NCBI GenBank assembly: GCA_963665485.1
Contig: OY762227.1
Location: forward strand, 2,864,784-2,928,783
Reading direction: 5' to 3'
From: Bacteroidales bacterium
GTDB lineage: Bacteria; Bacteroidota; Bacteroidia; Bacteroidales; UBA4417
DNA length: 64,000 nt
Under the pieces are notes generated by a model. That model had not been told where the DNA came from, ran no database searches, and saw only the letters and a list, made by a program, of their open reading frames with translations. Each line of letters opens with the position of its first letter. The stretch's first letter is position 1. The translations under genes and the position numbers were made by a program. Shown here piece by piece: positions 40,112-44,296 of this stretch.

Positions 40112-43105
40112 ATGCTCCTCCCAAAAATATTGATAAACAGATATAAATTCCTGATTCTGATGCACAGTCTGATACTCTGTATGTCAGGCCAGGCGCAGGT
40201 TTCAGTTCAAACGAACAGGGCTGAGCAACATTGGGTTGACTCGGTTTATAATGCACTAACTCCTCAGCAGCGGATTGGCCAGTTGTTTATGTTAAGGGCT
40301 AACTCAGATATTGATTCCCTTGAAATTCATCAACTTACCCGGCTTATCAAAGAGTATGATATAGGCGGATTATGTTTTTTCAAAGGAGGCCCGATAAGGC
40401 AGGCTATTCTTACAAATTACTATCAGAAACTGGCGCCAACACCATTGCTCATTTCGATGGATGCTGAGTGGGGACTTGGAATGCGGCTCGACAGTACCAT
40501 TTCCTTTGCCCGGCAAATGACAATGGGAGCAATAAGGAACGAACAACTTATAACTGAGTATGGACTCGCTATAGCGGCGCAACTTCGCAGAATGGGCGTT
40601 CATATTAGTTTTTCGCCTGTAGCTGATATCAATAGCAATCCGGCGAATCCGGTAATCAACATCAGGTCTTTCGGCGAACATAAGGAAGATGTAGCCCGAA
40701 AATCGGTTTTGTATATGAAAGCGCTTCAGCAGGATGGCATTATTTCGGTTGCCAAACATTTTCCCGGGCATGGTGATACTGACACTGATTCGCACCATGC
40801 TTTGCCTTTCATTGGCCATTCTGCTGCTGTTATTGATTCGTTGGATGTTTACCCATTCCGGGAACTGATTAATGCAGGCATAGATGGGATCATGGTAGCT
40901 CATCTTAATATTCCGGCATTGGACGCAACCAAAGATATTCCTTCAAGTCTTTCGCCGATTGTTATTGATTCGCTTTTGCGTAAAAAATTAGGATTTAATG
41001 GATTAGTATTTTCGGATGCATTGGATATGAAAGGTGTTTCCAATTTTAACGGGCCTGGTTCAGTTGAGTTTAAAGCGTTGAAAGCTGGAAATGATGTGTT
41101 GCTTCTTTCCGTTTCGGTTGAAAAAGCTGTGGCTGAAATTTTGCAGGCCATCGACAGCGGTTTTTACTCGCAGGATGAATTAGCTGTTCATTGTAAAAAG
41201 ATTCTTGCAAGTAAATATCGTTCCGGGCTTAATAAGCTTCAAGCTGTTCAGCTTGCAAATCTTTATAATGATCTTCATTTGCCTGAAGAAGTGAATCTGA
41301 ATATGGAATTGTACAGGAATGCGATTACTGTTTTGAAAAATGAAGGTAACATCCTGCCGATATTAACTACTGATACATTACATATAGCATCCTTAATGAT
41401 AGGTTACCCGGATATCCGAATGTTTCAGCAGCGCATTAATGATTATGCCAGGGTTGACCACTATATGTTACCTCGTGATGTGGATAAAAAAACAATTGAG
41501 GCAACACTCAAATATTTGAAAGACTATAACCTGGTTATTATTGGTATCAATAATACAATTCCGTCACCAGCGCGGAACTTTGGCATTTCTGATGCGACTA
41601 TAAACCTGGTTGATTCGTTGTTGGTTTCCAAACAATGTATTTTGAATTTGTTTACGCTTCCATACAGCATCAATCTTTTTAATAAAATAGATAAGGCAAA
41701 AGCAGTTGTGGTAGCCTATCAGGATAATATGGATGCCTACGATGCAGTTGTACAGATGATGTTTGGAGCAACTGCCGCCGGTAGCACTCTTCCTGTTGGA
41801 GTAAATAATGCTTTTCCAACCCACGCCGGACTTACAACAACCACTTCAGGTCGCTTAAGCTATAATCCTTACCAGGATAAAGGAATACATCCGGAGGACC
41901 TTGATGTAATTGACTCGATTGTTAATATCGGCCTGGATAAGAAAGCATATCCTGGTTGCCAGGTTCTCATAGCTAAAAATGGAAATGTCATTTACAGGAA
42001 GTCATTTGGAAATACTGATTATATTCATAAACAGTCGGTTAAGAATGATGATTTGTACGATATCGCTAGTGTTACCAAAGTTGCGGCTACAACTCTGGCA
42101 GTAATGAAGCTCTATGATGAAGGTAAGGTGAATCTGGACGAACCACTTTCAAAAACCTTGAAATACCTCGAAAACAGCAATAAGAAGAAAATCACTATAC
42201 GCGAAGTAATGACACACCAGTCGGGGCTGGTTGCCTGGATCCCTTTCTATCAGAAGACGCTGAAGAATGGTTATCCGGATAGTTCTATCTACAGAAAAGT
42301 AGTTTCAGATAATTTTCCGTACAGGGTGGCCGAAGGGATGTATCTCAGGAAAGACTACAGGCAGGCCATTCTTGATTCGATCATTCATTCTCCTTTATCG
42401 GAAAAGAAAGAATATAAATATAGTGATCTTGGTTTTATACTTATGCAACAGTTTGTCGAACAGGTTACAGGATGGAGCCTTGATCAGTATGTTGACGAAC
42501 AGTTTTATAAACCACTAGGCTTGAAAACGCTTACTTTCCACCCACGGGATAAATTTCCTTTAGGTCGGATTGTACCAACAGAAAATGACACGCTGTTCAG
42601 GCATCAGCTGGTACAGGGTGATGTGCATGACCAGGCGGCTGCATTGTTGGGTGGTGTTGCAGGGCATGCAGGATTATTCGGTACTTCAAATGATTTGGCT
42701 GTAATTTTGCAAATGTTGGTTCAAAACGGTTCATATGGTGACAGGCAATACATTAAACCTGAAACAGTTGCTCTGTTTACAAAACGGCAGTTTAAAGGAA
42801 ATCGCCGTGGACTCGGATTTGATAAACCTCAACTTGTACCTTCCGAACCAGGACCAGCTTGCGAAGAAGCTTCGAAAAACAGCTTTGGACATACTGGTTT
42901 TACCGGAACGTATATTTGGGCTGATCCGGATAATGATCTTATTATCGTTTTTCTTTCGAACCGCGTAAATCCTGACGCCGAGCCTAATAAACTCGTGCAG
43001 CTGGGCACACGGACCCAAATACAGCAAACTCTTTACCGTGCATTAAATAAAAATCTGAAACCCGGGCAACAATTGCAACGGAAGCCTGTTAATACAACAG
43101 AGTGA
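40112..43105 (+). CDS. GH3 beta-N-acetylglucosaminidase fused to a beta-lactamase-like serine hydrolase
   Basis: DAEWG, RSFGE, KHFPGHGDT..DSH, SDAL.M; SVTK (SxxK), YSD, GHTGFTG. Confidence 0.92.
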   Translation: MLLPKILINRYKFLILMHSLILCMSGQAQVSVQTNRAEQHWVDSVYNALTPQQRIGQLFMLRANSDIDSLEIHQLTRLIKEYDIGGLCFFKGGPIRQAILTNYYQKLAPTPLLISMDAEWGLGMRLDSTISFARQMTMGAIRNEQLITEYGLAIAAQLRRMGVHISFSPVADINSNPANPVINIRSFGEHKEDVARKSVLYMKALQQDGIISVAKHFPGHGDTDTDSHHALPFIGHSAAVIDSLDVYPFRELINAGIDGIMVAHLNIPALDATKDIPSSLSPIVIDSLLRKKLGFNGLVFSDALDMKGVSNFNGPGSVEFKALKAGNDVLLLSVSVEKAVAEILQAIDSGFYSQDELAVHCKKILASKYRSGLNKLQAVQLANLYNDLHLPEEVNLNMELYRNAITVLKNEGNILPILTTDTLHIASLMIGYPDIRMFQQRINDYARVDHYMLPRDVDKKTIEATLKYLKDYNLVIIGINNTIPSPARNFGISDATINLVDSLLVSKQCILNLFTLPYSINLFNKIDKAKAVVVAYQDNMDAYDAVVQMMFGATAAGSTLPVGVNNAFPTHAGLTTTTSGRLSYNPYQDKGIHPEDLDVIDSIVNIGLDKKAYPGCQVLIAKNGNVIYRKSFGNTDYIHKQSVKNDDLYDIASVTKVAATTLAVMKLYDEGKVNLDEPLSKTLKYLENSNKKKITIREVMTHQSGLVAWIPFYQKTLKNGYPDSSIYRKVVSDNFPYRVAEGMYLRKDYRQAILDSIIHSPLSEKKEYKYSDLGFILMQQFVEQVTGWSLDQYVDEQFYKPLGLKTLTFHPRDKFPLGRIVPTENDTLFRHQLVQGDVHDQAAALLGGVAGHAGLFGTSNDLAVILQMLVQNGSYGDRQYIKPETVALFTKRQFKGNRRGLGFDKPQLVPSEPGPACEEASKNSFGHTGFTGTYIWADPDNDLIIVFLSNRVNPDAEPNKLVQLGTRTQIQQTLYRALNKNLKPGQQLQRKPVNTTE

Positions 43106-43216
43106 AAATAGTTATTGGTAAAAGTTAATCGGAAATAGTTAGTCGGAAATGGTTTAAGGTTCAATAGCAGATAATCTAAGGTTATGGTTAAATAGCTTGT
43201 TAACTCAACAATTTAT

Positions 43217-43405: not shown

Positions 43406-43906
43406 ATGTCAAAAGTAACTTTAAAAGGTAGCCCTGTAAACACGATTGGGGAATTACCTGCAGTGGGAACAAAAGCACCTGAATTTTCGCTGGTTGGAAG
43501 CAATTTAGCCGATGTAAAGAACAATGATTTTGCCGGTAAACGAGTGGTTTTAAACATTTTTCCAAGCCTTGATACAGCTACCTGCGCAGCTTCGGTAAGG
43601 CGTTTCAATGTTGAAGCAGCTAAATTAAAAGACGCAGTTGTTGTATGTATTTCAAAAGATCTGCCATTTGCTCACGGTCGTTTCTGTGTTGCCGAAGGAA
43701 TCGCTAACGTGGTTTCAGCATCCGAATTCCGTAGCAATAATTTTGGTAAAAGTTATGGCGTTATGATTACCGATGGTCCTTTGCAAGGATTAATGGCCCG
43801 CGCAGTAGTTGTTCTCGATAAAGATGGCACCGTTTTGTACAATCAGTTGGTACCTGAAATTACAGAAGAACCTGACTATCAGCCTGCATTGGATTCGTTG
43901 AAATAA
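43406..43906 (+). CDS. tpx: Thiol peroxidase
   Basis: FPSLDTATC, SKDLPFA..RFC. Confidence 0.96.
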   Translation: MSKVTLKGSPVNTIGELPAVGTKAPEFSLVGSNLADVKNNDFAGKRVVLNIFPSLDTATCAASVRRFNVEAAKLKDAVVVCISKDLPFAHGRFCVAEGIANVVSASEFRSNNFGKSYGVMITDGPLQGLMARAVVVLDKDGTVLYNQLVPEITEEPDYQPALDSLK

Positions 43907-43967: not shown

Positions 43968-44049
43968 GCGGATGTGGCGTAATTGGTAGCCGCGCCAGAC
44001 TTAGGATCTGGTGTCGAGAGACGTATGGGTTCGAGTCCCTTCATCCGCA
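43968..44049 (+). tRNA. tRNA-Leu(UAG)
   Basis: GCGGATG/CATCCGC-A acceptor stem, CCAGA-CTTAGGA-TCTGG anticodon arm, long variable arm, TTCGAGT T-loop. Confidence 0.96.
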
Positions 44050-44296
44050 CAAATTTTGATCTAAGCTGCTTTTTTGCAGCTTTTTTCTTTAATAATGGAT
44101 GAAAGGACGAGAAGTTTATCCCGACGCAGGAGGGAAGTCCCTTCATCCGCACAAATTTTGTTTAAAGCTGCTTTTTTGCAGCTTTTTTCATTTAATAATG
44201 GATGAAAGGACGAGAAGTTTATCCCGACGCAGGAGGGAAGTCCCTTCATCCGCACAATTTTTGATTTAAGCTGCTTTTTTGCAGCTTTTTTCATTT
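44034..44296 (+). repeat. tRNA-linked tandem repeat, about 2.6 units of 102-103 bp
   Basis: AGTCCCTTCATCCGCAC at 44034, 44136 and 44239, each followed by an AAGCTGC-T6-GCAGCTT terminator. Confidence 0.95.

Follow-up and report, generated by a model that had tools for sequence, protein, structure and literature searches.

Directly behind a tRNA-Leu gene of a Bacteroidales bacterium, the tRNA's 3' end recurs in tandem, and ahead of each further copy stands a short antisense strand able to pair with it. The question that this locus raises is what such an array is: a source of RNA, a piece of DNA that moves, or a by-product of termination, gene decay or island integration. We took up this question in a window of 64,000 nucleotides (the whole stretch of DNA that was analysed; contig OY762227.1 of assembly GCA_963665485.1) and in genomes of the same genus, the same order, the same phylum and beyond. 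We conclude that the array is a member of a compact, widespread and apparently undescribed variant of the tRNA-linked repeat (TLR) kind, and we discuss below how such units could be made, moved and maintained.

Layout of the array behind tRNA-Leu(TAG)

The host gene, tRNA-Leu(TAG), is called on the + strand by both ARAGORN and Rfam (tRNA model, 56 bits; end at 44050 or 44049). About 20 nt upstream lies a box, TACCTTTG, which we take to be a promoter element of the TAnnTTTG-like type. The gene is preceded by a thiol-peroxidase-like gene (43406-43906) and followed by the gene for trigger factor (tig, from 44499), on an orthologue of which the Trigger_N domain was found. Tandem Repeats Finder reports a tandem array at 44034-44296 with a period of 103, 2.6 copies, 95% matches and no indels, the unit length being 102-103 bp, and direct reading gives the order of its parts as A-B-A-B-A. 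The A part is the final 16 nt of tRNA-Leu from the T-loop A58 (at 44034-44049, 44136-44151 and 44239-44254), followed by the trailer and a terminator-like hairpin, and the B part is an arm, GGATGAAAGGAC (starting at 44097 and 44200), followed by GAGAAGTTTAT, CCCGACGCAGGAGGG and AA (Table 1). The arm complements GTCCCTTCATCC at 11 of 12 positions, with a single A.C mismatch. Both the tRNA-linked array with its parts and the 11/12 antisense arm had been claimed in a preliminary description of this DNA made from the sequence alone, and both were confirmed, with every coordinate correct. On the + strand, three terminator-like hairpins lie within the array and four in the scanned region as a whole, against 0.6 expected from shuffles.

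An assembly artefact, which the preliminary description had named as grounds for refuting it, is ruled out by the assemblies of relatives: many of them, independently assembled, carry this array too, the number of units being 0 to at least 5, and exact short-read unitigs, from runs that are possibly the assembly's own source data, tile the window's array including its copy-specific differences. We therefore treat the array as real. Elsewhere in the window, a 14-nt tandem repeat of 3.6 copies (43106-43154) directly follows a long ORF that ends at 43105.

Table 1. Features of the tRNA-Leu(TAG) locus, in positions of the 64,000-nt window.
Feature	Position	Strand	Basis
tRNA-Leu(TAG), host gene	43968-44050	+	ARAGORN; Rfam tRNA; CCA not encoded
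Repeated 3' end, copy 0 (A58 to discriminator A73 of the tRNA itself)	44034-44049	+	sequence; start of the Tandem Repeats Finder array
Terminator-like hairpin 1, followed by a T run	44063-44082	+	-12.1 kcal/mol, z -4.3
Unit 1, 5' arm GGATGAAAGGAC, complement of tRNA positions 59-70 (11/12)	44097-44108	+	sequence
Unit 1, conserved unpaired core GAGAAGTTTAT	44109-44119	+	invariant alignment columns; 19-nt core matched exactly in at least 120 genomes
Unit 1, inner hairpin P2 (CCCGACGCAGGAGGG) and AA, of which the second A is A58	44120-44136	+	covariation in 3/6 P2 pairs
Unit 1, copy of the tRNA 3' end, GTCCCTTCATCCGCA	44137-44151	+	sequence
Terminator-like hairpin 2	44164-44185	+	terminator scan
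Unit 2, identical to unit 1	44200-44254	+	covariance model, 71.6 bits
Unit 2, parts	arm 44200-44211, core 44212-44222, P2 and AA 44223-44239, 3' copy 44240-44254	+	
Terminator-like hairpin 3	44268-44287	+	terminator scan; array end at 44296

Distribution, host genes and fold of the unit

A search of the genome for the core, as the preliminary description had proposed, led to this locus only in the genome itself and to many carriers among relatives and in other phyla. In the window's own genome, pattern search, BLAST and the covariance model found no further copies beyond the two units of the window; pattern matches with one or two mismatches are unrelated, and a third exact match to the 13-mer GAGAAGTTTATCC lies inside a protein-coding gene. 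That the unit is part of a family, as had been supposed, is borne out by the covariance model (R1, built from curated units of relatives, with 59 model positions), which gives 69 hits in 23 of the 45 genomes of the genus (22 of 44 apart from the window's own genome), and hits in 10 of 150 other genomes in a sample of the order and in 9 of 150 in a sample of the phylum. The 13-mer itself has 77 matches in the 45 genus genomes, while its reversed counterpart, used as a control, has 2. Some 29 of these matches are unrelated to the units, 21 of them falling within two conserved coding genes and 8 elsewhere; the remainder are units. At the widest scale, at least 120 public genomes contain an exact match to the 19-mer GGACGAGAAGTTTATCCCG, with about 4 matches expected by chance. 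Its carriers among the matches listed are mostly Bacteroidota, including Flavobacterium, Saprospiraceae, Chitinophaga, Lentimicrobiaceae, Prolixibacteraceae, Paludibacter and Porphyromonas, and a unit behind a tRNA is also present in records labelled Chlorobiota, Patescibacteria, Fidelibacterota and Balneolales, where misassignment of MAG contigs is possible. The unit family is absent from Rfam 15, and a literature search found no paper with the core motif string and no account of such repeats in Bacteroidota.

Copy number per locus ranges from 0 to 7 among the loci seen. Behind tRNA-Leu in species of the genus, the same module occurs in 0 to at least 5 copies with an arm that is usually a perfect GGATGAAGGGAC, and the inner hairpin keeps its pairing despite sequence changes (CCCGCTGAAAGCGGG, CCGCCTCAGGCGG, CCCGCTGTGCGGG); one species carries a 56-nt insertion in it. 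The terminators that follow the copies are similar inside one genome and dissimilar between species, which points to homogenisation within arrays.

Wherever the context is readable, a tRNA or tmRNA gene on the same strand stands directly 5' of the module, with more than 19 host species, and the same is true of all 11 newly fetched genus loci hit by the model. Of the 80 exact 19-nt core loci listed, a tRNA on the same strand precedes the core by no more than 200 nt in 65 (19 tRNA species), and in 12 of these 65 the core begins less than 20 nt after the tRNA, which leaves no space for a terminator. The genus units found with the 13-mer have tRNA-Leu(TAG), Thr(CGT), Gln(TTG), Gln(CTG) and tmRNA as hosts, to which the model searches added His, Asp, Leu(CAG), Met, Gly(CCC), Gly(TCC) and Pro(GGG). 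At the 13-mer-found hosts the arm complements that gene's own 3' end (e.g., arm GTCCGACAGGAT and 3' end ATCCTGGTCGGAC for Gln(TTG), GTCCGATCAGGGC and GCCCTGGTCGGAC for Gln(CTG), GCAGCCGGGAG and CTCCCGGCAGC for tmRNA), and the identity between unit and host starts at A58 in every case. Copies at other tRNAs, with arms matched to their own host, were what the preliminary description had regarded as decisive, and relatives have them. Two arrangements bear on how units could be expressed: in two genomes the order within a tRNA operon is Thr-Tyr-Gly(TCC)-unit-Thr(GGT), with about 5 nt between the unit and the tRNA that comes after it, and the tRNA-Thr array of another genome (G023) consists of 56-nt units without terminators.

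The exact-core loci allow arm matching to be assessed without bias, since they were picked by the core alone. For the 59 of the 65 listed loci that could be scored, the arm fits its own host at 4.47 of the 8 positions scored beyond the fixed GGAC; with other hosts the figure is 3.35 +/- 0.17 (2000 permutations, maximum 3.84). Across phyla, still among the listed exact-core loci, the arm pairs at positions 63-65 with values of 0.83, 0.80 and 0.58, and further along it drops to background. Reliable pairing at this distance thus involves the T-stem strand only, so that the feature of the family is a T-arm-like helix, and the 12-14 bp acceptor-like extension is a feature of the window's lineage rather than of the family as a whole. 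The likeness to an acceptor/T minihelix, proposed for the window's units in the preliminary description, therefore holds in the window's lineage and gives way to the T-stem strand alone across phyla.

Each unit of the window is predicted to fold so that the arm and the 3' copy form a helix with the inner hairpin inside it (-19.4 kcal/mol, z -2.4); the minus strand folds slightly better (-22.0 kcal/mol), owing to the A.C mismatch in the arm helix. In the genus, arm and 3' copy make a 12-bp helix that ends in the tRNA's own 3' tail, and the conserved unpaired loop, GAGAAGUUUAU, contains GAGAAG, which is present in 73 of 90 distinct units. A curated alignment kept 27 units of 77 candidate strings pre-filtered at 9 or more of 13 arm pairs, with coding matches, degenerate copies and units longer than 72 nt dropped. 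In these 27 units the two-helix structure has 91.6% of its cells paired, against 70.5% in shuffles and at most 54% in slid controls, and changes on both sides are found in 3 of 6 inner pairs and in 10 of 12 arm pairs, a figure that the arm-pairing pre-filter biases. G.U and A.C mismatches number 42 and 35 in the arm helix and 15 and 5 in the inner hairpin, a distribution that favours the tRNA strand only mildly in the inner hairpin and does not favour it in the arm helix. We also considered a coding reading of the unit, which was rejected because the inner-hairpin length differs among species by non-multiples of three, and a hammerhead-like or other known ribozyme, for which Rfam had no match. 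An Rfam scan of the window region at E up to 10 returned, besides the tRNA, noise only.

Relation to the tRNA-linked repeats of E. coli

The closest known parallel lies in another phylum. According to a paper on these repeats (PMC8144298), TLRs were first described in E. coli in 1978, ten loci of that species have 22 of them, each sharing 18-19 identical bp with the end of the RNA upstream of it (its 3' end), and most are without known function. The same paper singles out as an exception RrA/RrB/RrF, which lie between the dual terminators of rrnA/B/D, are made by read-through and are reported to bind Hfq and CsrA, and there the authors suggest the repeated 3' end as a processing signal (PMC8144298). 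As described there, RrA/RrB/RrF share with the window's units the terminator-unit-terminator layout and a unit that ends in a copy of the upstream RNA's 3' end, but their host is 5S rRNA. A preprint (10.1101/2024.07.17.603846) mentions rttR in a passage that adds no mechanism.

Set against the marks of the TLR class, the window's units lie immediately 3' of the host gene (a tRNA or rRNA gene in the class) and on the same strand, their 3' end is that of the upstream RNA (16 nt, A58-A73, plus trailer), and there are one to several tandem copies per locus (2.6 in the window). The likeness to the E. coli TLR/RtT family (RF00391) goes further: in both, tandem copies stand directly 3' of a tRNA on the same strand, the unit ends with the host 3' end from A58, a 5' arm pairs with that copy, and GAGAA(G/C) follows immediately after the arm. 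At tyrT/tyrV of E. coli K-12, the 178-bp repeat is made up of GGGGAAGGAT, GAGAAGCTTCGA, a middle part that ends in GAGT, and AATCCTTCCCCCACCACCA. The tyrT arm GGGGAAGGAT is the complement of ATCCTTCCCC, the 3' end of tRNA-Tyr, GAGAAG comes next, and the identity again starts at A58; the repeated end is 19 nt including CCA, against 16 nt in the window's units. Other E. coli TLRs have the arm and then GAGAA(G/C) as well (GGGGGGAT before GAGAAGCCCCGA, GAGGAT before GAGAACCTCCGG), and in the RF00391 consensus arm and 3' copy are paired, with GAGAA just after the arm, as in window-type units. This makes one statement of the preliminary description wrong, namely that the built-in antisense arm was not known to it as part of the enterobacterial repeats: the arm itself is an already known TLR feature, and it is the compact Bacteroidota version that is apparently undescribed. 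In the 3' part, E. coli units carry CGAGCGAAGCGAG, to be compared with CCCGAT-GAGCGAAGCGAA-ATCGGG in long-form Bacteroidota hairpins, and a GCGAAGC-type motif in mid-unit is common to the E. coli TLR and the long forms of Bacteroidota units.

The differences are of several kinds. Bacteroidota units, unlike RtT, belong to a different phylum and have tmRNA among their hosts, their inner part is a single variable hairpin, and an exact 19-nt core is common to several phyla. Their model has 59 positions against 130 for RF00391, and their 3' copy lacks the CCA of E. coli because the host genes do not encode it. RF00391 gave no match to the window region at E up to 10 and none to five unit loci at E up to 1, and none of these reaches its gathering threshold of 45 bits, compared with 133-137 bits for E. 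coli in the same search. In the opposite direction, three of the tyrT units head the matches of the Bacteroidota model when it is run with filters off, and they are aligned in register (13.6 bits, E 0.03), a cross-family match that is marginal and confined to tyrT. On the strength of the same arm-GAGAA-3' copy plan in both groups we regard the architecture as shared, and common descent of RtT and the Bacteroidota units is plausible.

An important aspect of this comparison is what it says about the TLR kind in general. The building plan is now seen outside enterobacteria and at half the size, which reduces what is essential to a T-arm-like helix formed with the host 3'-end copy, a GAGAAG loop and one hairpin. 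With a 19-nt core that is identical across several phyla and an arm that tracks each host tRNA or tmRNA, there are many natural variants to compare, and among the carriers are culturable strains of Flavobacterium, Salinimicrobium and Arenibacter.

The acceptor/T-arm minihelix of tRNA, which RNase P, RNase Z and the CCA-adding enzyme accept as a substrate, offers a second point of comparison. The 12-bp helix of the genus with the tRNA's 3' tail is shared with it. On the other hand, the unit is without the first two acceptor pairs, has a 28-nt module in place of the T loop, and across phyla pairs only in its T-stem part.

Processed RNA, mobile DNA and other readings

Given this likeness, we lean, with moderate confidence, towards reading the array as the Bacteroidota counterpart of TLR/RtT, probably transcribed together with the tRNA, folded, and cut by way of its tRNA-like end. 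The module comprises a 5' arm that pairs with the host 3'-end copy, an unpaired GAGAAG loop, a variable inner hairpin and the host copy itself, which runs from T-loop A58 through the discriminator, trailer and terminator. Transcription could reach it by read-through of the terminator or, where the module lies within the tRNA trailer, directly. The RNA would then fold into a T-arm-like hairpin (one that resembles an acceptor/T minihelix in the window's lineage), and, as the unit carries the tRNA's own 3' end and trailer, the tRNA end-processing enzymes could cleave it and free an RNA of about 55-100 nt, with the conserved loop as its presumed working surface. Unequal recombination between the repeated segments of 3' end plus terminator would change the copy number (0 to 7), and the same process would keep the copies within a genome alike.

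Co-transcription of unit and tRNA is hard to avoid at some loci, namely that of the operon unit, those with a spacing of less than 20 nt and that of the G023 array. In the window, a good terminator-like hairpin stands before each unit, so that read-through may be rare; these terminators, the mismatch counts of the arm helix and the better fold of the minus strand are among the points that we count against the RNA reading. Two metatranscriptome runs gave cover on the tRNA only, plus one 133-nt contig (X2, 11 differences) over 44136-44263, and since DNA can occur in metatranscriptome libraries this contig is not evidence of transcription. A search of sequencing runs for RNA runs that contain the stretch found none, the RNA matches being small shares only.

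The first alternative places the action at the level of DNA. The core cassette would install itself at the T-loop position of tRNA genes as a selfish micro-element or recombination site, bringing or copying the 3' part of its target so that the host gene survives; a nuclease or recombinase encoded elsewhere would act in trans on the hairpin as a site of folded single-strand DNA, and derivatives without an ORF would account for the short units. We consider this unlikely, even though several observations fit it. The spread is patchy, with carriers making up 22 of the 44 other genus genomes, 10 of 150 of the order and 9 of 150 of the phylum, copy number at one locus varies from 0 to 7, the same 19-nt core stands behind at least 19 different tRNAs in several phyla, and arm, 3' copy and trailer are all derived from the target, which leaves the core alone as foreign; nor do the mismatch counts of the arm helix have a strand bias. 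In addition, G067 and G115 have tandem modules in which Pro(GGG)-type units and small GIY-YIG ORFs alternate, small GIY-YIG ORFs adjoin tRNAs and partial tRNA copies in 8 of 13 further loci, and the window's own genome has one such ORF beside tRNA-Arg(CCT). Yet the 13 further GIY-YIG loci are without a unit by the covariance model, and the 1.5 kb around 45 unit loci contain no transposase, no integrase and no other mobility gene that recurs. Neither the mobile micro-element nor the spare att sites that the preliminary description had envisaged are supported in view of this last result. The neighbours that recur are housekeeping genes only (tpx, tig, glnS, rimP, TonB receptors), as judged from 157 flank ORFs of the 45 loci, with the Pfam scan applied to recurring clusters. 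Inner hairpins are unlike between loci of the same genome (e.g., G011) and thus give no sign of recent intragenomic copying, and the core was never seen away from a tRNA or tmRNA 3' end where the context could be read. The duplicated target segment measures 15 to about 60 nt, unlike a fixed target-site duplication, and this range, together with the single locus in the own genome and the host-dependent arms, also sets the units apart from a MITE or insertion sequence.

The units may resemble folded single-strand recombination sites such as integron attC or the attP of CTX phage, which would likewise have two inverted arms enclosing a variable terminal structure, be conserved in shape and occur in tandem arrays. 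They differ from such sites in that their conserved sequence lies in an internal loop and their arms are host tRNA sequence, and an integron or Xer-type context was not found at the units. A broader and still less likely form of the mobile reading would join all TLR/RtT modules into one superfamily, in which a GAGAAG-hairpin cassette retargets itself by means of a target-matched arm, possibly moved by small GIY-YIG nucleases. It would span Proteobacteria, Bacteroidota and other phyla, the cassette replacing the T loop of a partial tRNA copy, and, if true, would amount to a programmable selfish element specific to tRNA genes or to an RNA-guided system.

The remaining alternatives, terminator duplication, tRNA pseudogenes and att relics, each fail on the conserved non-tRNA core and on covariation. 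Fail-safe termination, by which the tRNA 3' end and terminator would have been duplicated in tandem to keep transcription from running on into trigger factor, with the hairpin as a by-product and no separate RNA product, seems improbable to us: three near-identical terminator-like hairpins do stand in a row before tig, and terminators are indeed similar within a genome and dissimilar between species, but many units have no terminator at all, the part best conserved across phyla is the non-terminator core, and both arm and inner hairpin covary. We give equally little credence to decaying partial pseudogenes, that is, tandem duplicates of the host minus positions 8-48 and the T loop. The arms of Gln and Pro units do equal the 5' strand of the acceptor plus that of the T stem, and a longer tRNA-Pro copy in G067 has the core in place of the T loop; against this, a non-tRNA core (GAGAAGTTTATCCCG...GGGAA) is common to units of unrelated tRNAs, of tmRNA and of several phyla, His and Leu arms are often better complements than the tRNA's own strands, and the units are called neither by ARAGORN nor by the Rfam tRNA model. 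Relics of integrase att sites, left by genomic islands integrated at the tRNA 3' end, are hardly credible as the source, since no integrase lies near the units (45 loci), the island end in G005 is without arm and core, units of 56-103 bp carry at most a terminator, and neither the inner-hairpin covariation nor a unit inside a tRNA operon would be expected, for all that tRNA and tmRNA genes are classic integration targets, that the tRNA-Leu-to-tig interval varies from 0.45 to 18.5 kb among relatives and that in G005 a 49-kb segment separates tmRNA from the 3'-end copy preceding the unit.

Apart from the units, we observed several other oddities next to tRNA and tmRNA genes. In G005 (C1:1751228-1800673), the roughly 49 kb between the tmRNA gene and the second 3'-end copy look like an island integrated into tmRNA upstream of the unit, and the tRNA-Leu-to-tig interval of another relative (G008) holds a 1136-aa Peptidase_C10 protein with a Por secretion tail. 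Outside the window, its genome (G000) has a second TLR-like locus, without the GAGAAG core, on the minus strand at C1:1672200-1672700: behind tRNA-Met(CAT) stands a repeat of another type, about 172 nt long, which ends with the tRNA's last 17 nt and a terminator and has a short arm, CAGGAT, facing ATCCTG. Also outside the window and on the minus strand of G000 (C1:345700-346750), a small GIY-YIG-like ORF immediately precedes tRNA-Arg(CCT); its flanks carry a duplicate of the promoter and an incomplete 5' tRNA copy that ends at the T stem and has a 25-nt hairpin insertion. Tandem modules of about 380-580 bp stand behind tRNA-Pro(GGG) or tRNA-Val(TAC) at four loci (L127, G058:C3; L128, G058:C3; L112, G067:C31; L103, G115:C3), each with a small GIY-YIG ORF and then a partial tRNA copy in which a GC-rich hairpin replaces the anticodon arm, and in some of them the stop codon of the ORF falls within D-loop sequence. 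Finally, an 18-nt palindrome, TCCCGATAGCTATCGGGA, occurs in the D-loop region of tRNA or tRNA-like sequences at three loci (L029, about 900-960; L098, about 1330-1370; L119, G017:C6), and two 93-nt tRNA-Leu(CAG) genes that contain it are still called by ARAGORN.
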